Assembly (NCBI GenBank): GCA_946529215.1 | Contig: CAMMZC010000003.1 | Location: 3,976-67,975, forward strand | Direction of reading: 5' to 3' | DNA: 64,000 nucleotides | DNA from: an uncultured Clostridia bacterium | GTDB lineage: Bacteria > Bacillota > Clostridia > TANB77 > CAG-508 | Shown here: piece by piece, positions 16,322 through 51,717 of the stretch | Numbering within the stretch: position 1 is the first letter of the stretch | Layout of the letters: each line of letters begins with the position of its first letter | The notes under the pieces: generated by a model | The model's database searches: none | Seen by the model: the letters and a program-made list of their open reading frames with translations, nothing else | Told to the model about the DNA's origin: nothing | Position numbers and translations under genes: made by a program

Positions 16322-16397
<76 letters not shown>

Positions 16398-16499: not shown

Positions 16500-18575
16500 T
16501 TATTGATTTTTTAATTTTAATATGTTGATTGTTTCCATAGTTTCTTTAGACTTCTCGTTATCTTTGCCATATACTTTGCATTGTAATTTGTATAATTTTT
16601 CGTATAACTCTAGCGAATTATTATATTTTTTCATTTTTTTATAAATACTAGCTAAATTATTTAAATTCCTTAATGTATTTGGATGAGTTTTCCCTAATGT
16701 TTCTTCACTCTTTTTATATGCTTCTTTTCCAAATTTTATAGCATTATCATAATTTTCTATATCACTATAATAAGTTGCAAGATTGTTTAACGATGTTAAT
16801 GTGTTAGGATGAGAGTCTCCCAATATTTCCTTTAATTTATTATAAACTATTTCACCTAATTTTACAGCTTTATTATAATTTCCCGTATGATTATAATAAT
16901 AAGAAAGATTATTTAAGCTTCTAAATGTATCTGGATGCTCATATCCTAATGTCTCTTTTCTATTTTTGTATACCTTTTCTCCTAACCTTATTGCTTCTTT
17001 ATAATCTTTTTTATAATTATAATAAATTGCAAGTCTGTTTAAACTTGTTAATGTATTTGGATGAGTTTTGCCTAATGTTTCTTTTCTTTTTTTATACACA
17101 TCTTTTCCGAGTTTTATTGCCATATCATAATTTCCTATATTACTGTAACTGACAGCTAGATTATTTAAACTAGTTAATGTATCAATATGAGTTTCTCCTA
17201 AACTTTCTTCTCTTTTTCTATATACTTCTTCTCCAAGTTTTATTGCTATATCATACTTTCCAATATCATCATAACCTCTCGCTATATTATTTAAACTATC
17301 TAATGTATATAAATTATTCTCTCCTAATACTTCTTTTTGGATTTTATAGCATTCATTGTTTACTTCCAATGCTTTGTTATAATCACCTGTATTTCTATAA
17401 GCAACAGCCAATTTAGTTAAACTTATCAATGTATTTAAATGTTTTTCTCCTAATTCTTTTTTATCTTTTTCATATACCTTTTTTTGCCACTCTAAAGCTT
17501 TTTTATAATCTAATTTTGTTCCTTTACCTTCTTCATATATATATACAAGCTCTTTCATTGCTTCTTTACATTCAAGATTTCCTGATTGTTCAAGCAGTTT
17601 TATTCCTTTTTCTTTATTTACTTCAACATCAATGCCATTTAAATATGCTAATCCTATAAAGTATAAGTGTTTTGGATCATCATTTTCCCTCCATGCTTCA
17701 TTTATTAAATACTTTTTTAAAGATTCACTTAAAAGCTCTGTATCATTTACTTTAATCGGAACAGGTATTTCTTTATATTTTTTTTGTAATTCTTCTTTAC
17801 TTGTATCTACCGCTTCAATTGGAACTATATTTTTACATTCTTTTTTAGCATTTGGATATTCTATTTTTTCCACATAGTTTTCTTCATTTACTAGATTTGG
17901 CGTTACAACCATTGCAAATAATTTACTTTTCTTCAAAGCTTCCTCTATTGACTCATTAAAATCTTGCCCTGGCTTTAAAAACTCATCATACCAAATTGCA
18001 ATATCTCTGCAAAATTCATTTTCATGAATTAAATGCATTATGTTTTCAGCATGTTTTTTGTCTTTTTTTCTATAACTTAAAAATATATATGCATCAAAAG
18101 CTTCTTGAACCTGTTTTCTCAATTCATCACTTACTAATACTGATTCTATATATTCTTTTAATTTACTTTTATATTTTTCTTCTCCAACAACTAACTTACT
18201 TAATGCTTGAAGGTTTCCACATTTTTCGTTAAAGTAGCTATCTATATTTGGCTCCATCATTATTGGCAAAATTGGAATATGATTATCCATTGCATATTGA
18301 AATTCTACTACTCTTGCATCACATTCTTCTGATATAAATTTCCATGTTACAGGTATCACAAATAAGTTTATTTGGCTCAAGTCATCTATAATTTCTCTTG
18401 AATTAATATTTTTATCAGCTTTATAATAAATTACACAATTTCTTATATCTAGAATTTCTTCAGTTATCTCTTCAAAATATTTATCAAAATCATTTTGATA
18501 GCAACAAAAATATACTCTTGATTTATCTTTTAGTTCTTTTCCTCTTGTTTTATATTTTAACTTTATTTCTTCCAT
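16500..18575 (-). CDS. Tandem TIR-like + TIR domain protein with C-terminal TPR array
   Basis: 691 aa. Residues ~18-110 form a TIR-like flavodoxin module (RVYFCCYQNDF...LFVIPVT...IPILPI). Residues ~160-260 form a canonical TIR (YIFLSYRKKDKKHA...IWYDEFLKPGQDF...KLFAMVVTPNL..NYVEKIEYP). Then come about 7 kinesin-light-chain-type 42-aa TPRs (LGxxHPNTLTSLNNLAxxYxxxGNYDxAIKLG). No P-loop. Confidence 0.8.
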   Translation of the reverse strand: MEEIKLKYKTRGKELKDKSRVYFCCYQNDFDKYFEEITEEILDIRNCVIYYKADKNINSREIIDDLSQINLFVIPVTWKFISEECDARVVEFQYAMDNHIPILPIMMEPNIDSYFNEKCGNLQALSKLVVGEEKYKSKLKEYIESVLVSDELRKQVQEAFDAYIFLSYRKKDKKHAENIMHLIHENEFCRDIAIWYDEFLKPGQDFNESIEEALKKSKLFAMVVTPNLVNEENYVEKIEYPNAKKECKNIVPIEAVDTSKEELQKKYKEIPVPIKVNDTELLSESLKKYLINEAWRENDDPKHLYFIGLAYLNGIDVEVNKEKGIKLLEQSGNLECKEAMKELVYIYEEGKGTKLDYKKALEWQKKVYEKDKKELGEKHLNTLISLTKLAVAYRNTGDYNKALEVNNECYKIQKEVLGENNLYTLDSLNNIARGYDDIGKYDIAIKLGEEVYRKREESLGETHIDTLTSLNNLAVSYSNIGNYDMAIKLGKDVYKKRKETLGKTHPNTLTSLNRLAIYYNYKKDYKEAIRLGEKVYKNRKETLGYEHPDTFRSLNNLSYYYNHTGNYNKAVKLGEIVYNKLKEILGDSHPNTLTSLNNLATYYSDIENYDNAIKFGKEAYKKSEETLGKTHPNTLRNLNNLASIYKKMKKYNNSLELYEKLYKLQCKVYGKDNEKSKETMETINILKLKNQ

Positions 18576-31047: not shown

Positions 31048-31123
31048 TGGTGCCACCAAGCAGAATCGAACTGCTGGCCTACGGGTTACGAATCCGTCGC
31101 TCTACCAACTGAGCTATAGTGGC
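31048..31123 (-). tRNA. tRNA-Thr (CGT)
   Basis: Reverse complement GCCACTA TA GCTC AGTTGGTA GAGC G ACGGA TTCGTAA CCCGT AGGCC AGCAG TTCGATT CTGCT TGGTGGC ACCA. Clean cloverleaf with a single A31.C39 mismatch. Anticodon CGT. CCA encoded. Confidence 0.9.
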
Positions 31124-33453: not shown

Positions 33454-33655
33454 CGTTACAATTCACAACCGAAAATATTTTTTTATAAAAGTTAATATAT
33501 AAATTATTTGTAATTAAATGTGGGGACCGTTCAATGATTTCCAAAAGTTTGAAAAACTTTTGATGAAATCATTAGAATGGGGATAATGTAAAATAATTTA
33601 TATATTAACTTTAACCCGTACAACAATTAGCTGAAAATTGTAACGTATTTTTTAA
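33454..33655. repeat. Nested palindromic element in the nrdD leader (interrupted copy of the 43776..43863 element)
   Basis: Outer inverted repeat CGTTACAATT (33454-63) / AATTGTAACG (33646-55). A perfect 22-bp inverted repeat AAAGTTAATATATAAATTATTT (33488-509) / AAATAATTTATATATTAACTTT (33591-612). Central hairpin AATGATTTCCAAAAGTTT / AAACTTTTGatGAAATCATT (33533-73), flanked by direct ATG(T)GGGGA repeats. Confidence 0.75.
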
Positions 33656-33780: not shown

Positions 33781-34413
33781 ATGCAATCTGAAGAAGAAAT
33801 TTCAAATTTTCTAAAATCCATTGAAACTAGATGCTATAAGACAACTAAGCACTCATTTTTAAAAGGAGAAACAATAACAACATATCTTGAAAAACGTAAT
33901 CAACTATGCATTCTTCTAAATGGAGAGGCAGATTTAATTAGATATGATTTTAATGGTAATAAAACAATAATTGGACAATTTTCTAATAATAGTATTTTCG
34001 GAGAAGCCCTTTATCCCGCAAATACAAATAACGAACTTTTTGTGCTTGCAAAAACAAATTGTGAAGTATTATTTTTTTCTTATGATAATCTTTGGACTAA
34101 ATGCAGGCAAAATTGCTCATTTCATAAAGAATTTTCCGAGCAAATAAATAAACTAATTATTAGCCAAGTAGTTGAACTTAACACTAGAATTGAGCTTCTT
34201 ACTAAAAAAAATATAAGAGACAAACTTTTATCATATTTTGATATTTTGTCTAGTAAAAAATTAAGTAAAACTATATCTATTCCTTTTACTTTTACAGATT
34301 TAGCAGATTATTTGAGTGTAGATAGAAGTGCTATGACTCGTGAGCTTTCTCATCTTATTGAAGAAGGCTTTATAGAGAAAAAGGGAAAGAAAATTAAATT
34401 ACTATATAATTAA
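33781..34413 (+). CDS. Crp/Fnr-family transcriptional regulator
   Basis: 210 aa. N-terminal cNMP-binding-like beta-roll (GETITTY...LCILLNGEADLIRYDFNGNK). C-terminal HTH (FTDLADYLSVDRSAMTRELSHLIEEGFI). No N-terminal Cys cluster of true FNR. Confidence 0.85.
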   Translation: MQSEEEISNFLKSIETRCYKTTKHSFLKGETITTYLEKRNQLCILLNGEADLIRYDFNGNKTIIGQFSNNSIFGEALYPANTNNELFVLAKTNCEVLFFSYDNLWTKCRQNCSFHKEFSEQINKLIISQVVELNTRIELLTKKNIRDKLLSYFDILSSKKLSKTISIPFTFTDLADYLSVDRSAMTRELSHLIEEGFIEKKGKKIKLLYN

Positions 34414-34423
34414 AAAGCAGACA

Positions 34424-35401
34424 TTATACATCTGCTTTTTTACTTTCTTCTATTTCTTTTTGAAAATTATTATAAGCTTCATTCCAAGCCTCAAAACTTT
34501 TGTCTTCTCTATGATCTGGAAGATCATTGTTATTTTTCAAATACTCACCAAGATAACTTGTTACTTTTAAAGCACCTGTGTAATTTAAATGCTCTCCCCT
34601 TTTTTCTTGACAATCTTTTTTCCAATTAATTTTTAATTCATCAACCTTTAAATTTAAGTCAATATATTCTATTCCTAATTTTTTTGCGATTTTTTCTATT
34701 CCATTGTGTTTATCATAATTCCAATTTGCAGGTGATGGTGAATTATACAGCATAAATTTTGCATCATTTTTTTTACATAAATCTTTAATTTCTTTTAAAT
34801 GTTTTATATTATCACTAGGTACTTTTTTAGAAACTTCATTTTCCTTCATGAAGTTATCTCTTTTGCTCTTCTTTACTTTATTGGTCTTAGTGCTAAATCT
34901 ATATCCTTTATCATTTACTATTTCTGTATATTCAGGTGTTTTATAAAAATCCTCTTTGGTTAAATTTTTCCATCTATCATGAAATTCCAAAACTGGAAAA
35001 TATTTATCAACATATTCTTTTAAATGGCGCACATATCCATTTTTAGTATATAAAGCATTTGCTTCTAAAATAACAATTTTAGGCTTTTGTCTTTTAAAAG
35101 CTACATTTAAATAATAGTAACTATTAGAAATACGCTGTGCAGGTGTCCCACAAACATAAGAAGTAAATCCATATTGATTCCATAGTTCTAGAGGTATATA
35201 TGAATTATATGATTCACTATCTCCAAGTACTATAACATCTATAGTATTTTCTGGCTCAGTATAAATTCCTGTTACAAGTTGTTTTCTTTTTCCTATTCCA
35301 GCTTCTAAAGTATTGTTTTTTGGTACAAATATTTTTGAAAGTAAAGCTAAAATTATAAAAAATATGCCTACAAAAACAATACATTTTATTGTCCTTTTCA
35401 T
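34424..35401 (-). CDS. Membrane-anchored SGNH/DltD-like acyltransfer accessory protein
   Basis: 325 aa with an N-terminal TM anchor (IKCIVFVGIFFIILALL). VIVLGDSESYN (block-I-like GDS) and GEHLNYTGA (DxxH-like block V). It lies directly downstream of the MBOAT gene, as DltD/AlgJ-type partners do. Confidence 0.65.
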   Translation of the reverse strand: MKRTIKCIVFVGIFFIILALLSKIFVPKNNTLEAGIGKRKQLVTGIYTEPENTIDVIVLGDSESYNSYIPLELWNQYGFTSYVCGTPAQRISNSYYYLNVAFKRQKPKIVILEANALYTKNGYVRHLKEYVDKYFPVLEFHDRWKNLTKEDFYKTPEYTEIVNDKGYRFSTKTNKVKKSKRDNFMKENEVSKKVPSDNIKHLKEIKDLCKKNDAKFMLYNSPSPANWNYDKHNGIEKIAKKLGIEYIDLNLKVDELKINWKKDCQEKRGEHLNYTGALKVTSYLGEYLKNNNDLPDHREDKSFEAWNEAYNNFQKEIEESKKADV

Positions 35402-35448
35402 TTTACATCTCTCTTTCTATTAAAATACTTTTTATTATTGGCATTTTA

Positions 35449-35571
35449 GTGTATATTTTAATAATGCGCGTAAGCAACCAAACGAGCATAGCGGGTGCGA
35501 TTGGATCAACTTACAAACAAGTCATTTAGAATATGGAAGTTGCGACACACAATCATTATAAAAATATACAC
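35449..35571. repeat. 123-bp imperfect palindromic intergenic element
   Basis: Left arm GTGTATATTTTAATAATGCGCGTAAGCAACC and right arm GGAAGTTGCGACACACAATCATTATAAAAATATACAC are reverse complements with a few mismatches. The relatively GC-rich core sits between the MBOAT and SGNH genes. Confidence 0.65.
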
Positions 35572-35578
35572 AAAAAAA

Positions 35579-37168
35579 CTAAAAATTAGCATACATTGGC
35601 TGTACTGCCTCATAGTTGATTCCATAAGCTCCAAATAAAAGTATTGCAAAAATTATTAAATAGTAAATAGTCCATCTAATAACTATATTTTTCTTAGAAA
35701 TTTTTTCTCTAACACTTATATCTTTTTCATGCATTATGCTAATTACAAACACTAAAATTGTAAATATAGCAATAATTATAAAATCTTGCACATCCATTCC
35801 AAGTTTTAGAATTGTTCCATCTTTAAATGAATTTAATGAGAAATTTGTAAACATCTTACCAAGCATCTCAAATCCTGATGTAACTGTTGTTGCTCTGAAG
35901 AATAACTCTCCAACAAAAACAAGTAATGTAGTTTTTATTATTTGCAATCCTTTATACCACGCTTTTTCTCTATTTATGTGTAATTTCGCACTAATCCACA
36001 AAACTGCAGGCTCAAATATTTTGCCTGATAAAATAAGTACAAAATGATACATTCCAAAAAATATAAAAGTCCAAGCTGCTCCATGCCAAAGTCCATTACA
36101 GAACCATACACAAAATAGTGCAATAGCACTTGCAATTAATGGTCCATAATATTTTCCAATTTTCTTTCTAGCATTTGTTGTTAATTTTTTTAATGGCTCA
36201 GAAAGTGATAATGGATAAAATATGTAATCTCTGAAAAATGCCCCTAAAGTTATATGCCATCTTGTCCAAAATTCTGATATGTTTTTTGAGAAAAATGGTT
36301 GTTTGAAATTTTCTGGTAATTTTATTCCAAAAATTTCTGATGTTCCAATTACCATATCCATTGTTCCTGAAAAATCCATATAAAGCTGTAATGTATAAAG
36401 AACCATACCAGCTACCATAATTCCGCCATCATATTTTGCATAATTTCGATATATTTCACCTATAAATCTGTTTAGCCTATCTGCAATAATCATTTTCTTA
36501 ATCATACCATAGCTAATTCTTAATAATCCGCTTTTTAAGTTAGCATAAGTAATCTTGTTTCCTTCCCATAATTGCATTGCAGTTTCTGAATATCTGCAAA
36601 TTGGGCCTTCCATAATTTGTGGGAAGAATGTTAAATATAAACTAAGTCTTGCAATATTTTTGTCTGCCTTAATTTTTTCGTGATATATGTCAACCAAATA
36701 CGAAACTGCTTGTAAAGTATAGAATGATATACCTATTGGCATTAATATTTTTGGTATTTGTAGCTTGAATGGTATTTTTAAAGTTTGTAATAAAGAATTT
36801 ACATTTCCACCAATAAATCCTATATATTTTACTACTAACAAAATACCAATATTTACTAAAACTCCAAATGTTAGTACTCTTCTTTGTTTTTTTAAATACT
36901 CTGCTCTTATTTTCTTTTTTTGTTCTTTTTCTGCTTCTTTTAAAATTCCATTTCTTTCATTTTGTAATAGTTCGAGCCAAATTCCTATATAATGTATTAA
37001 AAATGTAGAGCCTATTACATACACAATTAATTTTTTGCTTATAGACCAAAAAAATGCATAGCTAGCAAGCAATAGCACTTTCCATCTGTGTTTTTGTGGA
37101 ACTATGCTATAAGCAATTAATGTTAAAGGAAGAAACATAAAAAGATATGCTACTCCAAAATATGTCAT
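35579..37168 (-). CDS. MBOAT-family membrane O-acyltransferase (DltB/AlgI-like)
   Basis: 529 aa, multipass. Conserved His contexts FWTRWHITLGAFFRDY and NGLWHGAAW are typical of DltB/AlgI. Confidence 0.88.
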   Translation of the reverse strand: MTYFGVAYLFMFLPLTLIAYSIVPQKHRWKVLLLASYAFFWSISKKLIVYVIGSTFLIHYIGIWLELLQNERNGILKEAEKEQKKKIRAEYLKKQRRVLTFGVLVNIGILLVVKYIGFIGGNVNSLLQTLKIPFKLQIPKILMPIGISFYTLQAVSYLVDIYHEKIKADKNIARLSLYLTFFPQIMEGPICRYSETAMQLWEGNKITYANLKSGLLRISYGMIKKMIIADRLNRFIGEIYRNYAKYDGGIMVAGMVLYTLQLYMDFSGTMDMVIGTSEIFGIKLPENFKQPFFSKNISEFWTRWHITLGAFFRDYIFYPLSLSEPLKKLTTNARKKIGKYYGPLIASAIALFCVWFCNGLWHGAAWTFIFFGMYHFVLILSGKIFEPAVLWISAKLHINREKAWYKGLQIIKTTLLVFVGELFFRATTVTSGFEMLGKMFTNFSLNSFKDGTILKLGMDVQDFIIIAIFTILVFVISIMHEKDISVREKISKKNIVIRWTIYYLIIFAILLFGAYGINYEAVQPMYANF

Positions 37169-37238
37169 TTTTATCTTTCCCTTCTCTTACTTCATAATTT
37201 TGTTTTTTTATATCTCAAATTAAAAAGATTTTTGTTTT

Positions 37239-37469
37239 CTACCCTTCTTCTTGCAAACGTGTAATCATTTCCCACATAGCTTTTGCAGAATTAAAGTTAT
37301 CTGGTATTATTTCTACTGTTGGTATTACAATGTCAAATTCATCTTCTAGCTCTGCAACAAGTGAAATGATTGCAAGTGAATCTAAATAATGCTCATCTAT
37401 TAAAGTTGTGCAATTTTCGTAATCTACTCCATCTTCTATTTCTTCTAAAATTTCAATTAATCTTTCCAT
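37239..37469 (-). CDS. Acyl/aminoacyl carrier protein (DltC-like)
   Basis: 76 aa, acidic. Phosphopantetheine attachment motif HYLDSLAIISLV. Confidence 0.85.
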   Translation of the reverse strand: MERLIEILEEIEDGVDYENCTTLIDEHYLDSLAIISLVAELEDEFDIVIPTVEIIPDNFNSAKAMWEMITRLQEEG

Positions 37470-37600
37470 TTTTAACTTCCTTTCTAGGGACAGATTTCAG
37501 TTCCCATTTTACTTTAATATTTATTAACCTTTATTTATGAACTTTAGTTTATTATATATTTTATCAATAGCCAATTTCTCTTGGGGAAATACGTTCTTTT

Positions 37601-37808
37601 TTTTAAAAAATTTCGACGCACCCCCTTTTTTGGCACAAGCATAAGGATTAGCGGTAATCAATTTTTAGCGTTATTTTTGTTTAAAATCTCGCATTTTTTT
37701 ATAAAAGTCGTTATTTTTTAATCTCATTAATTTTAGCGATATTATTATATTAGGTATGATGCGTCTTGTTTGATTACAATTTTTGCGTCCAAATTTTTTA
37801 AAAATTTT
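37601..37808. mobile_element. MITE-like element, family A, copy 1
   Basis: ~208 bp, non-coding. Terminal inverted repeats AAAAATTTCGACGCA ... TGCGTCCAAATTTTT. The first ~65 bp and last ~30 bp are near-identical to 51463..51669. It is inserted between the decarboxylase and carrier-protein genes. Confidence 0.6.
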
Positions 37809-37915
37809 ATATATTATCTATATGTTTTTAAAAATTTAAGCTTATTTAACATAATAGTTTTTCTTATTTAATGATTGAATTTTAAAGATATTTTTATTAA
37901 TGAAAGTTCAGCCTG

Positions 37916-39160
37916 TTAAAAATAATAACTTGCCTTGTTTAAAGTATATGTTTCAAATGCCTCTCTTACTAATTTGAGTTTTCCACCTTTAAGTAAAGCA
38001 ACTTCTGGCAATTCTCTACTTAAAAATAGTGAAATTCCTTCTGTCATACAATAAGCTCCTGTGTTTTTAAATATAAACACATCTCCTACTTGTAAATTAC
38101 TTACAGGATATTGTTTTATAATTATATCATTTATTGTACAAAGTGAACCCATAAGATTCCAAGCTTCTGTATTGTTGTTATCTTGCTCTGTTTTTTTGTT
38201 TTCACGCTCTTCTTTATTATCGTCTTGCTCAATATTAGTGTTATCTCGCAATTGATATATTTCAAGATGTGGAAACTTCATTGCCATTGTTTGTCCATAA
38301 TAAACTAAGTGATGAATTCCTCCATCTAGTATAGCATAATTTTGACACTTATTTGTCTTTTTGTCAACTACTTTTGTTAAATAATATCCACAAGAAGCCG
38401 CAATGCTTCTGCCAAGCTCAATTACAATTTTTCCTTTATATTTCATATTGTCAATTCCGTTAGAGAATTCTTTTAAAAATTCTACTTCATCAAATTCTTC
38501 TCCTTGGAAATAATGCACAGGAAAACCTGTTCCAAATTCAAGCTCTTCTACTATGTAGTTATATTTTTCTTCTAGTCTTGCTAAAAACTCATCTAAATAA
38601 TCTATTTCTTTTTGAAGCCTTTTGTTTGTTCTTTTTTGAGTTCCTGAAAAATATTGAATTCCTTCAAAATTCAAGTTTGTATAAGAATCTTTTTTAGATA
38701 TTATTTCTTCTATATCTTCTTCATTTATTCCAAATTGATTTCCACTTGTAAGTCTAAGTAAAACATTTAGTTTTACATTATGTTTTTTTGAAAGTTCATC
38801 TAAAAGCTTTAACTGTTCTTGCGACTCAACTGTGTATCTTCCAATTTTTTTGTTTGATGTGATCATATATTCTATTACACTTGGAGTTTTATACACTCCA
38901 GAAATAACTATTTTTTCAGGTGTAATACTTGATTCTTCACATATGCTGTATTCCCCTGGAGAACATACTTCAAATCTGTCTACATCATCATTTATTTCTT
39001 TTACAATAAATGTATTTGCTTTTATTGCATAACATAGTTCAAGCCTATTTGTTAAATTTTCTCTTAAAAATCTAATTCTTTGTTTTAGCTTGTCAATGTC
39101 AAATACATAAATTGGTGTTTCATATTTTTTTAAGATTTTTTCTATAATTTCTTGTTTCAT
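37916..39160 (-). CDS. Fold-type III PLP-dependent decarboxylase (Orn/DAP/Arg decarboxylase family)
   Basis: 414 aa. TPIYVFD ... CYAIKAN (PLP lysine), ILDGGIHH, and C-terminal GSLCTINDII (the family's active-site Cys region). It has an Asn/Asp/Glu-rich insertion QLRDNTNIEQDDNKEERENKKTEQDNNNTE. Confidence 0.8.
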   Translation of the reverse strand: MKQEIIEKILKKYETPIYVFDIDKLKQRIRFLRENLTNRLELCYAIKANTFIVKEINDDVDRFEVCSPGEYSICEESSITPEKIVISGVYKTPSVIEYMITSNKKIGRYTVESQEQLKLLDELSKKHNVKLNVLLRLTSGNQFGINEEDIEEIISKKDSYTNLNFEGIQYFSGTQKRTNKRLQKEIDYLDEFLARLEEKYNYIVEELEFGTGFPVHYFQGEEFDEVEFLKEFSNGIDNMKYKGKIVIELGRSIAASCGYYLTKVVDKKTNKCQNYAILDGGIHHLVYYGQTMAMKFPHLEIYQLRDNTNIEQDDNKEERENKKTEQDNNNTEAWNLMGSLCTINDIIIKQYPVSNLQVGDVFIFKNTGAYCMTEGISLFLSRELPEVALLKGGKLKLVREAFETYTLNKASYYF

Positions 39161-39221
39161 TTTTTCTCCTTCATTATTATATTTGATTAAAAAATCTACG
39201 CACTGAAAAAAGTAATTTTTA

Positions 39222-40727
39222 TTATTTTTTTAAGATTAGTGCCAACTCTTTCCTATCAATCTTCCCATTTTTAGTAATTGGAAATTTCTCTATTTGAGTA
39301 ATTTTATTAGGGACCATAAATACCGGTAAATTTTCTTTCAAATATTTAACAACTTCATCTTTTTCTATATTTCCAACATAAAAGCCATAAAGTTTTCCTT
39401 TTTGCTCATTAAATAAGCAGCAACTTCTTTCAACTCCAGTTACTTTTTCCATTGCTCTTTCTATTTCTTCAAGCTCAATTCTATGTCCCATGTGTTTTAT
39501 TTGAAAATCTTTCCTTCCCATAAAAACAATTTCGCCATCTTTGTTATATGTACCTAAATCTCCTGTTTTATATATCATATCTATATATTTGTCATTTAAA
39601 GGATTTTGCACAAAATGTGATGAAGTTTGTTCTTTGTTGTTAAAATACCCTAATGCTAAACAAGTTCCTTTTACACAAATTTCACCCTGTGTGTCTGCAT
39701 CTGTAATTAGTTTATCATCTTCATCTAATAAAAGCACTTGCTCATTTGGAAATGGCTTTCCTGCTGGGATTTTTTCGTAATTTAAATTTTTGTCTACTAT
39801 ATGATATGTGCAATTACATGTAATTTCTGTTGGTCCATATAAATTAACATACATTGCATTTGGCAAATGTTCTATCCATTGTTTTAAATGCTTAATTGGC
39901 ATTACTTCTCCACTAAACATAACTTTATTTACTGTTTCTGGTGTTTTGTAATCTAATGCATGGAAAGTTGTAATTAAGCAAAGTGCAGATACTGCCCAAA
40001 TAAGAGTTGTAACTTTGTTGTTGCAAATATAGTCAAGTAATTCTGCAGGTAGAGAAAATAGCCTTTTAGGAATTATGACTAGAGTTGCACCTTGCGAAAT
40101 ACTTGAATATATATCTTTTACAGATACATCAAAATCAAATGGTGCTTGATTTCCTATAATATCGTTTTCTGTTATATTAAAAATCTCAGTAAAATTATCT
40201 ATAAAGTCAATTACAGACCTATTTCCAACCAATACTCCTTTTGGCACACCTGTTGAACCTGAGGTAAAATTCGCATATAGTGGGTCTAAGTCAAGTGCAG
40301 CGTTTCTTATTTCTTTTAGCTTAGTTTCTCCTATTTCTGTGTTTTTTAAATCTTCTAATAATAAAATGTCTTCTTTATTTATTAACTCTGCTGCTATTTC
40401 TTCATGTGCTTTATCTGTAACAATATTTTTCGCACCTAAAACATTTATTATATGTTCTAGTCTTACTTTGGGTAAATCTGGATTTAGCAAAACATAAAAA
40501 CAACCTGCATATACTGCTCCAAAAAACGTTGCTAATGTATCTTTTCCTTTTTCCATTAAAACTGGCACAGGATTTCTTGGCTCATAATATTTGCTTAATC
40601 CTGTTCCTATTTTTTTGCTTAAATTTGTTAATTCTTTGTATGTATATTTTCCTTTTTCATCTATTACTGCTATTTTCTCACTATTTTTTTGAGTACTATT
40701 TTCTAAGTATTCTAATACTGTTTTCAT
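39222..40727 (-). CDS. Amino-acid adenylating enzyme (DltA-like AMP-dependent ligase)
   Basis: 501 aa. FTSGSTGVPKG, NLYGPTE, YKTGDL and GRKDFQIKHMGHRIELEEIE adenylation core motifs. Size matches a stand-alone A domain like DltA. Confidence 0.85.
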   Translation of the reverse strand: MKTVLEYLENSTQKNSEKIAVIDEKGKYTYKELTNLSKKIGTGLSKYYEPRNPVPVLMEKGKDTLATFFGAVYAGCFYVLLNPDLPKVRLEHIINVLGAKNIVTDKAHEEIAAELINKEDILLLEDLKNTEIGETKLKEIRNAALDLDPLYANFTSGSTGVPKGVLVGNRSVIDFIDNFTEIFNITENDIIGNQAPFDFDVSVKDIYSSISQGATLVIIPKRLFSLPAELLDYICNNKVTTLIWAVSALCLITTFHALDYKTPETVNKVMFSGEVMPIKHLKQWIEHLPNAMYVNLYGPTEITCNCTYHIVDKNLNYEKIPAGKPFPNEQVLLLDEDDKLITDADTQGEICVKGTCLALGYFNNKEQTSSHFVQNPLNDKYIDMIYKTGDLGTYNKDGEIVFMGRKDFQIKHMGHRIELEEIERAMEKVTGVERSCCLFNEQKGKLYGFYVGNIEKDEVVKYLKENLPVFMVPNKITQIEKFPITKNGKIDRKELALILKK

Positions 40728-41701: not shown

Positions 41702-41986
41702 TTATTCAGCTGTATATGGTAATACAGCGATTTGTCTAGCTCTTTTTATAGCTAGAGTAATATCTCTTTGATGTTTTGCACATGCCCCTGTTGTTCTTCT
41801 AGGTAATATTTTACCTTTATCATTAACGAACTTTTTCATACAATCGAAGTTTTTATAATCTAAAACAAAGTTTGCATCTCCACAAAGTGGGCACACTTTT
41901 TTTCTTTGTTTTCTTAATCTTGGATTGTAATCTTCATCATAATTTTTATTGTTTCTGTTATTTCTCTTATTTTTCTTATCTGCCAT
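41702..41986 (-). CDS. rpsR: 30S ribosomal protein S18 (with basic N-terminal extension)
   Basis: C-terminal [34 protein letters not shown] is canonical S18. The N-terminal ~25 aa are Asn/Lys/Arg-rich. Confidence 0.95.
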
Positions 41987-43775: not shown

Positions 43776-43863
43776 TTACAATTCACATCCGAAAATATTT
43801 TTTTAGTAAATGTAAATATTTATATATTAACTTTAAACAGTACAACAATAAGCTGTGAATTAT
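43776..43863. repeat. Uninterrupted copy of the palindromic element found in the nrdD leader
   Basis: TTACAATTCACATCCGAAAATATTTTTTTAG...ATTTATATATTAACTTTAAACAGTACAACAATAAGCTGTGAATTAT. Both ends align with 33456-33485 and 33585-33650. Terminal inverted repeat AATTCACA/TGTGAATT. Confidence 0.7.
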
Positions 43864-43872
43864 ATCATTTAG

Positions 43873-51318: not shown

Positions 51319-51462
51319 AAATTTTTCCTCCTTTAAAAAATCTGAATTTATTATATTATTTTTTTCATTTTAAGTCAATACATTTTTTTAGTTTTTTATT
51401 TATTGTAGTTACTGGTTAACGATTTTAAAAAAAAATTAAAGTAATTCGATTTTAGTATATAT

Positions 51463-51669
51463 TTTTTTGAAAAAATTTCGACGCACCCCTTTTTTTGGCT
51501 ATAACGTGAGGATTAGCTGTAATCCATTTTAAGCACATTGCAAGTCTTTAAAAAGCAGTTTCTTAATAAAATAAGTTTATTTTTAATCTTCGTAAGATAT
51601 AAATACACATTTATAGTATGTTTCATATTCTTAATTTAGTCGAGATTTTTGCGTACAAATTTTTCAAAA
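51463..51669. mobile_element. MITE-like element, family A, copy 2
   Basis: GAAAAAATTTCGACGCACCCCTTTTTTTGGC...AGGATTAGCTGTAATCC...GATTTTTGCGTACAAATTTTTC. The termini match copy 1 (37601..37808) and the middle has diverged. Located between rpe and the aquaporin gene. Confidence 0.6.
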
Positions 51670-51717
51670 TCAATATAATATAATCACAAAATATTACTTT
51701 CTAATCTATTAATAAAT

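Follow-up and report, generated by a model that had tools for sequence, protein, structure and literature searches.

A conserved five-gene operon of gut and rumen Firmicutes as a candidate system for acylating the cell envelope with an amino acid decarboxylated on its carrier protein

This analysis concerns a stretch of 64,000 nucleotides from an uncultured Clostridia bacterium (GenBank assembly GCA_946529215.1, contig CAMMZC010000003.1, positions 3,976 to 67,975; hereafter the window), which has a G+C content of ~27%, and within it a cassette of five genes that probably attaches an amino-acyl group, one different from D-alanine, to a polymer of the cell surface. The genes encode a stand-alone adenylating enzyme (the A enzyme), a pyridoxal phosphate (PLP)-dependent decarboxylase, a small carrier protein, a membrane-bound O-acyltransferase (MBOAT) as well as a membrane-anchored protein of the SGNH fold. 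A preliminary description, made from the DNA letters only, had placed them in this order on the minus strand, and this is indeed how they lie: all five open reading frames (ORFs) are intact between 34424 and 40727, despite two interrupting inserts (Table 1). The family assignments of the first four genes were confirmed by Pfam and NCBIfam, and the source annotation gives the five proteins no name beyond 'acyl carrier protein'. No paralogs of the cassette genes were found elsewhere in the window. Shine-Dalgarno-like sequences are present upstream of the genes that follow the inserts, and a scan of the operon for promoters and terminators gave nothing better than shuffled sequence.

Table 1. The cassette, its inserts and the RNA genes of the window (window coordinates)
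Feature	Position	Strand	Description
Adenylating enzyme (A)	39222-40727	minus	501 aa, stand-alone, DltA/non-ribosomal peptide synthetase A-domain type
PLP decarboxylase (DC)	37916-39160	minus	414 aa, fold-type III, BtrK-like
Carrier protein (CP)	37239-37469	minus	76 aa, DltC-like, phosphopantetheine-site Ser31 (LDSL)
Long-type MBOAT	35579-37168	minus	529 aa, His362, C-terminal extension
Membrane-anchored SGNH-fold protein	34424-35401	minus	325 aa, GDS Ser62, Asn226, His271; predicted terminal transferase
MBOAT C-terminal hexapeptide codons, P-M-Y526-A-N-F	35582-35599	minus	matches the FxYxxF acyl-shuttle motif
Insert 1, ~205 bp	37600-37804		like a miniature inverted-repeat transposable element (MITE), 21-nt terminal inverted repeats; within the 446-bp DC-CP spacer (37470-37915)
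Insert 2	35434-35586		inverted-repeat ends; in the 177-bp MBOAT-SGNH spacer (35402-35578), slightly overlapping the MBOAT end
6S RNA	26983-27186	minus	Rfam, 76 bits
tRNA	31051-31123	minus	Rfam
tRNA	16322-16394	plus	Rfam

One genome per species was scanned with family-specific patterns, and a relative of the decarboxylase is encoded in 210 of the 185,579 species covered. The loci examined are those of the best 80 of these 210 species (decarboxylase identity 47-87%) together with metagenome loci, 81 loci entering the count of collinearity (identity 47-90%); ORFs were called in the fetched loci, which were then searched with the five window proteins. All five genes lie collinear on one strand, in the order A-DC-CP-MBOAT-SGNH, in 76 of the 81 loci, while the remaining five either lie at a contig end or have their MBOAT-SGNH unit duplicated, and the order A-DC-CP is kept at every locus (81/81). 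Along the operon the gaps have medians of -4, 3.5, 1 and 11 bp, with overlaps at many of the junctions, among them 35 of the 80 DC-CP junctions found. With homologs of the SGNH protein as the starting point, five further look-ups of genomic context also arrived at the same cassette at every locus. The hosts are Clostridia, Oscillospiraceae, Lachnospiraceae (Agathobacter, Catenibacillus), Ruminococcus bromii, Acetobacterium, Erysipelotrichales (Traorella, Thomasclavelia) and Faecousia. Co-conservation, a point on which the preliminary description had said that its idea could fail, is thus strict, and the five-gene set is not a chance neighbourhood but a tightly conserved operon of gut and rumen Firmicutes.

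The export part of the operon occurs in more than one copy in some genomes. Locus L032 has the gene order A-DC-MBOAT-SGNH-CP-MBOAT-SGNH (i.e. a duplicated export unit), and two tandem SGNH genes are present in loci L021 and L022. These duplicated export units hint at more than one acceptor.

The A enzyme is a member of the AMP-binding family, and it scores 321 bits with TIGR01733 (cut-off 317) and stays below the cut-off of both DltA models (TIGR01734, 277 vs 560 bits; NF003417, 290 vs 476 bits). Searched against solved structures, it matches PheA with 207 bits and DltA with 205 bits, the VinN-family structures scoring lower. Its substrate code was read from an alignment of GrsA-PheA and Bacillus DltA (PDB sequences) with 80 orthologs. 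The ten Stachelhaus positions read DVKIMSLCNK (D200, V201, K204, I243, M270, S272, L296, C304, N305 and K489), compared to DLMT(M/L)CTVAK at the same positions of Bacillus DltA. The residues that form the D-Ala pocket in Bacillus cereus DltA (L198, M201, C269 and V301; PMC11253843) are replaced by V201, K204, S272 and C304, which are invariant in the 80 orthologs, and the comparison of the specificity-conferring residues with DltA therefore finds no D-Ala code.

In the numbering of the code, D235, V236, K239, S301, C330, N331 and K517 are invariant in all 80 orthologs and L322 is found in 79, which argues for one defined, non-alanine substrate, while the retention of Asp235 implies that this substrate has an amino group. 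In the Glu code DAKDLGVVDK it is a lysine at position 239 that binds the side-chain carboxylate, and the other residues of the window code (V236, S301, L322) resemble the small-pocket Ser code DVWHLSLIDK. From this code we infer a short amino acid bearing a second carboxylate. With Lys239 invariant, a carboxylate is probably still present on the species that is loaded, and this would place decarboxylation after loading.

The decarboxylase is built of the domains Orn_Arg_deC_N (PF02784) and Orn_DAP_Arg_deC (PF00278), and both the PLP lysine (Lys47, in AIKAN) and the retained cysteine region (Cys341) that the preliminary description had pointed to are found in it. Whether it could be a housekeeping LysA that happens to lie next to the other genes, as that description had allowed, was judged by the LysA model TIGR01048, which it matches with 168 bits at a cut-off of 298, by BtrK as its top match and by the Cys loop, which reads LCTIND instead of CE(T/S)GD; this candidate was rejected. 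The top NCBIfam match, TIGR03099, is below its cut-off as well (170 vs 478 bits).

Among solved structures, phmmer ranks BtrK, the decarboxylase of the L-glutamyl group on the carrier protein BtrI (112 bits, over the full length), before SbnH (99) and the diaminopimelate decarboxylases (DAPDCs, at most 78), the family profile gives 141 bits for BtrK, 130 for SbnH and 115 for DAPDC, and Foldseek with an AlphaFold model of the enzyme (predicted local distance difference test 77.5) also returns BtrK first. In this decarboxylase family, specificity has been attributed to the Cys loop and to the region of the 3-10 helix (PMC7857480). The Cys loop is GSLCTIND in the window enzyme, GPLCTPED in BtrK, GQLCTPKD in SbnH and GPICETGD in DAPDC, and the second motif is DGGIHHL here, DGGMHHH in BtrK and DAGMNDL in DAPDC, so that LCT-x-x-D and DGG(I/M)HH are common to BtrK and the window enzyme and absent from DAPDC. 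The HMMER alignments differ at the same place, the one to DAPDC breaking off after DGGIHHL and the one to BtrK running on through it. Because Lys47, Cys341, E248 and R251 (E-x-G-R) and the GAY motif are invariant in the orthologs, the enzyme is predicted to be active (i.e. it should be), and it resembles a decarboxylase rather than a racemase. A low-complexity insertion of 21 aa (NTNIEQDDNKEERENKKTEQD) occupies residues ~309-329, in a surface loop; it is lineage-specific, being missing from nearly every ortholog (length 391-397 aa).

The small protein between the decarboxylase and the MBOAT is the carrier that had been described, with a PP-binding match and the serine in place within LDSL. It scores 33 bits with the DltC model NF003464 (cut-off 68), and its best solved relatives are the DltC chains of DltB-DltC complexes. 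The motifs L.SL and P.VEI.P.NFNSA are conserved, and the DltC-like segment after the serine is retained.

The MBOAT, which had been called DltB/AlgI-like, falls on the AlgI side. It matches PF03062 (56 bits, cut-off 27) and remains below the cut-off of the DltB model TIGR04091 (170 vs 375 bits). Its only solved relatives are DltB chains (88 bits, over residues 141-414), with His362 of its WHG motif aligning with the WHG of DltB. Beyond this DltB-like core the protein extends for ~115 residues, which hold hydrophobic segments resembling transmembrane helices at ~460-478 and ~495-517 and end on [P/S]-[I/M/L]-Y-A-x-F in 78 of 78 orthologs (the first residue being P in 77 and S in one, and never Phe). 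It also scores 200 bits with a 466-aa AlgI-type MBOAT that adjoins DHHW/ALGX genes in another Firmicute. In the Dlt system the FxYxxF acyl-shuttle motif is on a separate microprotein, DltX, while in MBOATs of the PatA/AlgI type it is fused after two extra transmembrane helices, its tyrosine passing the acyl group to the SGNH partner (PMC12148441). No small ORF that could be DltX is present upstream of the A gene, where the spacer to the ThiF-like gene measures 124 bp. Length and motif make it a long MBOAT of the AlgI/PatA type that carries its own Tyr shuttle, in place of a DltB with a separate DltX, and the earlier label is refined accordingly.

The fifth protein has no match in Pfam or NCBIfam, and its 670 homologs are all without a name or a Pfam domain. 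It has an SGNH fold with invariant Ser, Asn and His, a single N-terminal transmembrane anchor and, as its best transferase-type fold matches, PatB and OatA; it thereby has the Ser/Gly/Asn/His blocks and the membrane anchor of a partner SGNH-fold protein. The anchor and the fold given in the preliminary description are correct, while membership of DltD was rejected, no match to a DltD family being found, and the protein instead represents a new, Pfam-less SGNH family.

Following these results, the cassette can be read as a carrier-protein-dependent module for cell-envelope acylation in which a tethered amino acid is decarboxylated on the carrier, a reading to which we give about an even chance. 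The A enzyme, judging by its family and code, would activate an amino acid that bears a further acidic group (in the simplest case L-Asp or L-Glu) via the side-chain carboxyl, and the activated amino acid would then be thioesterified to the phosphopantetheine arm of the 76-aa carrier. The decarboxylase, if it behaves like BtrK (its closest characterised relative), would remove the free alpha-carboxyl and so give beta-alanyl- or gamma-aminobutyryl-S-carrier. The loaded carrier would dock on the cytoplasmic face of the MBOAT, where, as motif and homology suggest, the aminoacyl group may be passed by His362 catalysis to Tyr526 of the extracytoplasmic tail, after which Ser62 of the SGNH protein would accept the acyl group and esterify a hydroxyl of an extracytoplasmic polymer, e.g. 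a teichoic-acid-like or other wall glycopolymer. The net effect would be the addition of a protonated amine to the surface, like in D-alanylation, presumably under two-component control in about half of the genomes.

The attachment through the side chain follows from the chemistry, since PLP-dependent alpha-decarboxylation requires both a free alpha-amino and a free alpha-carboxyl group, as is the case for BtrJ/I/K and VinN/L/O. In the former, Glu is converted to gamma-aminobutyrate (GABA) on the carrier by PLP-dependent decarboxylation of the tethered substrate (PMC7857480), and in the latter 3-methyl-Asp becomes 3-aminoisobutyrate on the carrier (PMC11284099). The preliminary description had suggested that the loaded substrate is made or modified in situ and that an amine or a non-alanine amino acid is transferred to an envelope polymer. 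Modification on the carrier is the likelier form of this, because a free amine cannot be adenylated; a non-alanine amino acid as the group transferred is supported by the non-DltA code, the BtrK-like enzyme and the co-conservation.

Several points nevertheless weigh against decarboxylation on the carrier and against a wall polymer as the acceptor. The beta13-beta14 loop of the A enzyme is not shortened (the distance from TE to P is 19 residues, as in PheA), and activation of a side-chain carboxyl is consequently not supported by the hallmark of VinN. BtrJ, the partner ligase of BtrK, is an ATP-grasp enzyme and not an A domain. The lead of BtrK over DAPDC is modest (141 vs 115 bits, in a comparison of profile scores), and the model of the decarboxylase is of low confidence in the active-site loops. 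Teichoic-acid genes were not found within 8 kb of any of the 80 genome loci, and the literature searched (full text) yields no paper on this cassette.

One rival is a supply role of the decarboxylase, which would act on a free metabolite before loading (meso-diaminopimelate to L-Lys, or another amino-dicarboxylate to an omega-amino acid), with the A enzyme loading the product and the later steps being the same. Among the fold-type III decarboxylases the enzyme falls in the clade that contains DAPDC, most members of this family use free substrates, and the A domain shows no VinN-type shortening of the loop. Yet the invariant Lys239 argues for an anionic group on the entering substrate, and such a lysine is not expected where an A domain takes Lys or an omega-amino acid; the CE(S/T)GD loop of DAPDC and the sequence after DAGMNDL are replaced by BtrK-like motifs, the LysA model stays below its cut-off, and the usual products (e.g. 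Lys) are abundant in cells anyway, so that a dedicated syntenic enzyme would not be needed. Supply before loading is therefore considered unlikely, and chemistry on the carrier appears to be favoured by the invariant Lys239, the affinity to BtrK and the strict A-DC-CP adjacency. Alternatively, the fold-type III enzyme could racemise a free or tethered amino acid, such that a D-amino acid other than D-Ala is installed in parallel to Alr plus Dlt. Alanine racemase has the same fold, Dlt uses a D-amino acid and there is a weak match to Ala_racemase_N (44 bits), but the decarboxylase-type C-terminal sheet domain PF00278 is present, the loop with the proton-donor Cys is invariant, all close solved relatives are decarboxylases and the alanine racemase model TIGR00492 gives 25 bits at a cut-off of 168, all of which makes an epimerase very improbable.

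That the cassette is simply a divergent dltABCD for ordinary D-alanylation, next to an unrelated decarboxylase gene, is hardly credible. For three of the genes the best named matches in NCBIfam are DltA, DltB and DltC, and no solved structures come closer to the MBOAT and the carrier than DltB and DltC do; every Dlt model, however, is far below its cut-off, the D-Ala-defining L198, M201 and C269 are V, K and S, all 81 loci have the decarboxylase gene between those of the A enzyme and the carrier, in most cases with overlaps to the genes beside it, and in place of DltX and DltD there are a shuttle motif fused to the MBOAT and a protein without a DltD family match. A further question is where the acyl group goes, as the same donor chemistry could also serve a membrane glycolipid or a secreted small molecule. 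The cassette encodes no acceptor, teichoic-acid genes are not enriched nearby, the SGNH or MBOAT-SGNH units are duplicated in some loci, and AlmEFG is a case of a DltA/DltC-like pair that works for a lipid acceptor (PMC11253843). On the other hand, all characterised bacterial MBOAT-SGNH pairs modify extracytoplasmic polymers (alginate, cellulose, peptidoglycan, teichoic acid; PMC12148441) and the best transferase-type fold matches of the fifth protein are PatB and OatA, which leaves a glycolipid or a small molecule a rather unlikely acceptor.

Decarboxylation on the carrier followed by export through the MBOAT and the SGNH protein would combine traits of several known systems. With DltABCD/DltX the cassette shares a stand-alone A enzyme that loads a small carrier, an MBOAT with a catalytic His, an anchored SGNH-fold protein and a Tyr-containing hexapeptide as the likely acyl shuttle. 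It differs in gene order (A-DC-CP-MBOAT-SGNH, compared to X-A-B-C-D), in the extra PLP decarboxylase, in the non-D-Ala code, and in the shuttle motif being fused to a longer MBOAT, without a DltX. The long MBOAT with two extra C-terminal transmembrane helices and an x-x-Y-x-x-F end is that of O-acetylation systems of the PatA/PatB, AlgI/AlgJ/AlgX and WssH type. PatAB/AlgIJX-type systems use an acyl-CoA donor and have no carrier protein or adenylating enzyme (PMC12148441), whereas each locus of the window type encodes all three of carrier, A enzyme and decarboxylase.

The butirosin proteins BtrI/BtrJ/BtrK are alike in having a carrier, an ATP-dependent ligase and a fold-type III decarboxylase that acts on a tethered amino acid, BtrK being the closest solved relative of the window decarboxylase, yet with an identity of only ~25%; their product goes to an aminoglycoside via a soluble transferase and not to an MBOAT-SGNH pair. 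VinN/VinL/VinO and FlvN/L/O, which make beta-amino-acid starter units of macrolactam polyketides, also consist of a stand-alone A enzyme, a carrier and a PLP decarboxylase. In VinN/L/O the A enzyme loads (methyl)aspartate by its beta-carboxyl on a stand-alone carrier, which is followed by PLP-dependent decarboxylation of the tethered substrate (PMC11284099); its downstream use is by a polyketide synthase and not in envelope acylation. VinN-type activators of beta-amino acids have a beta13-beta14 loop that is one residue shorter and basic residues at 330/331, and the bulky residue at 236 and the Ser at 301 of the window enzyme are likenesses to beta-amino-acid A domains in the same comparison (PMC11253843). 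The window enzyme has neither this shortened loop nor VinN's K330/R331 pair, and its basic residue is at 239. A VinN-type beta-amino-acid A domain was accordingly rejected as a candidate, with a loop of PheA length and C and N at positions 330/331.

A further pair, the exosortase-A-associated TIGR03098/TIGR03099, likewise joins a decarboxylase to an AMP-forming ligase and lies in exopolysaccharide loci, but it belongs to Proteobacteria and another context, and the window proteins score below its cut-offs (195 vs 592 bits; 170 vs 478 bits). No function of this pair was found in the literature searched. AlmEFG has no decarboxylase, MBOAT or SGNH protein, its acceptor being lipid A and its transferase being of the AlmG type. 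Its likeness to the cassette is that, in the addition of glycine to lipid A in Vibrio, a DltA/DltC-like pair is reused to place an amino acid other than D-Ala on an envelope molecule (PMC11253843).

The flanks of the cassette contain regulatory genes in many of the genomes and are otherwise variable. An OmpR-type response regulator and a histidine kinase are adjacent to it in 39 of the 81 loci, in hosts of several orders, and the flanking histidine kinase has a large extracytoplasmic loop; in a subset resembling Erysipelotrichales a pair of ABC exporters stands beside these two-component genes. In one locus (L088, 2537-5374) a phosphopantetheinyl transferase gene and the two-component genes are found directly upstream of the cassette, and in another (L086, 11111-15688) a Bce-type FtsX/ABC module with histidine kinase and response regulator lies downstream, together with an AlgI-type acetylation set. 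In two metagenome contexts, genes of the teichoic-acid type (an ABC2 transporter, Glyphos_transf, a cytidylyltransferase) occur 2-9 kb from the cassette, and TagG/H-like and Glyphos_transf genes lie nearby in L084 (12777-20954). These neighbours fit a regulated modification of the envelope, whatever its acceptor. The ThiF/TcdA-like gene upstream of the A gene was rejected as a part of the cassette, since none but the closest relatives (L003-L006) have it next to the operon. A Crp/Fnr regulator at 33781-34413 is convergent with the cassette and not recurrent among the neighbour families.

The two inserts had both been noticed before, as a MITE-like element between the decarboxylase and carrier genes and a palindromic one between the MBOAT and SGNH genes, and both descriptions hold. 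The terminal inverted repeats of insert 1 (37600-37620 and 37784-37804) have arms that are 95% complementary, and a second full copy, 80% identical, is present at ~51462-51670, both copies having kept the termini AAAAAATTTCGACGCA ... TGCGTxCAAATTTTT; this family was found only in same-strain loci. Insert 2 has 33-nt arms that are 82% complementary, and its ends pair over ~30 nt in the fold, the folding energy being unexceptional (z -1.6); it is single-copy in the window. Neither insert is present in the loci of other organisms, where the median gaps at the two junctions are 3.5 bp (DC-CP) and 11 bp (MBOAT-SGNH), which marks the two as recent insertions, specific to this lineage, in an operon that is compact apart from them.

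Enlarged spacers are also seen in the closest relatives, at the A-DC and DC-CP junctions (L004, 7555-8001 and 9185-9708; L005, 2443-2716), which suggests repeated, independent insertions of small elements into the operon in this lineage. A second short repeat family with the termini TTACAATT...AATTGTAA is present at 33456-33642 and 43776-43864, and its copy in the nrdD leader has an extra internal palindromic segment of ~100 nt. In general, the genome seems to be rich in small inverted-repeat elements.

Elsewhere in the window, the only Rfam matches at gathering level are one 6S RNA and two tRNAs, with none in the inserts. A 126-nt tandem repeat (16587-17390) lies within an ORF of 691 aa (16500-18575, minus strand), the C-terminal half of which is a run of 42-aa TPR-like repeats, its N-terminal part looking TIR-like by eye. 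The ORF of ribosomal protein S18 (41702-41986, minus strand) has a long, basic, low-complexity N-terminal extension, and the same 94-aa gene is found in L001.

Every component of the cassette is of a known kind, and it is the combination that is new: a long MBOAT that carries its own shuttle and is supplied by an A enzyme with its carrier, a decarboxylase dedicated to the pathway, and an SGNH family that has no Pfam model. This makes the cassette an exception to the generalisation that long MBOATs with a fused shuttle use acyl-CoA without carrier proteins (PMC12148441), and it would join the on-carrier decarboxylation of antibiotic biosynthesis (BtrK, VinO) with envelope acylation, fields that have so far been kept apart. 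The hypothesis is directly testable with purified soluble or anchored proteins and mass spectrometry, and the cassette is widespread in abundant commensals. In its boldest form, which is put forward tentatively and at somewhat less than an even chance, many gut and rumen Firmicutes (Ruminococcus bromii, Agathobacter, Faecousia, Thomasclavelia and relatives) would esterify a wall polymer with a beta- or gamma-amino acid made on the carrier, a so far unrecognised modification of surface charge, and in this cassette an MBOAT bearing its own Tyr shuttle would for the first time be fed by a carrier protein instead of acyl-CoA.

Surface charge, resistance to antimicrobial peptides and host signalling in Gram-positive bacteria all depend to a large extent on the D-alanylation of teichoic acids, which is also a drug target. 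If the proposal is true, abundant and poorly studied commensal Firmicutes would possess a second amino-acylation chemistry, with the same export logic (from carrier to the Tyr of the MBOAT to the Ser of the SGNH protein) and another acyl group that is altered on the carrier. An omega-amino ester would, by our own reasoning, be chemically more stable than a D-alanyl ester, and the modification could affect the resistance of these organisms to cationic peptides and their interaction with the host.

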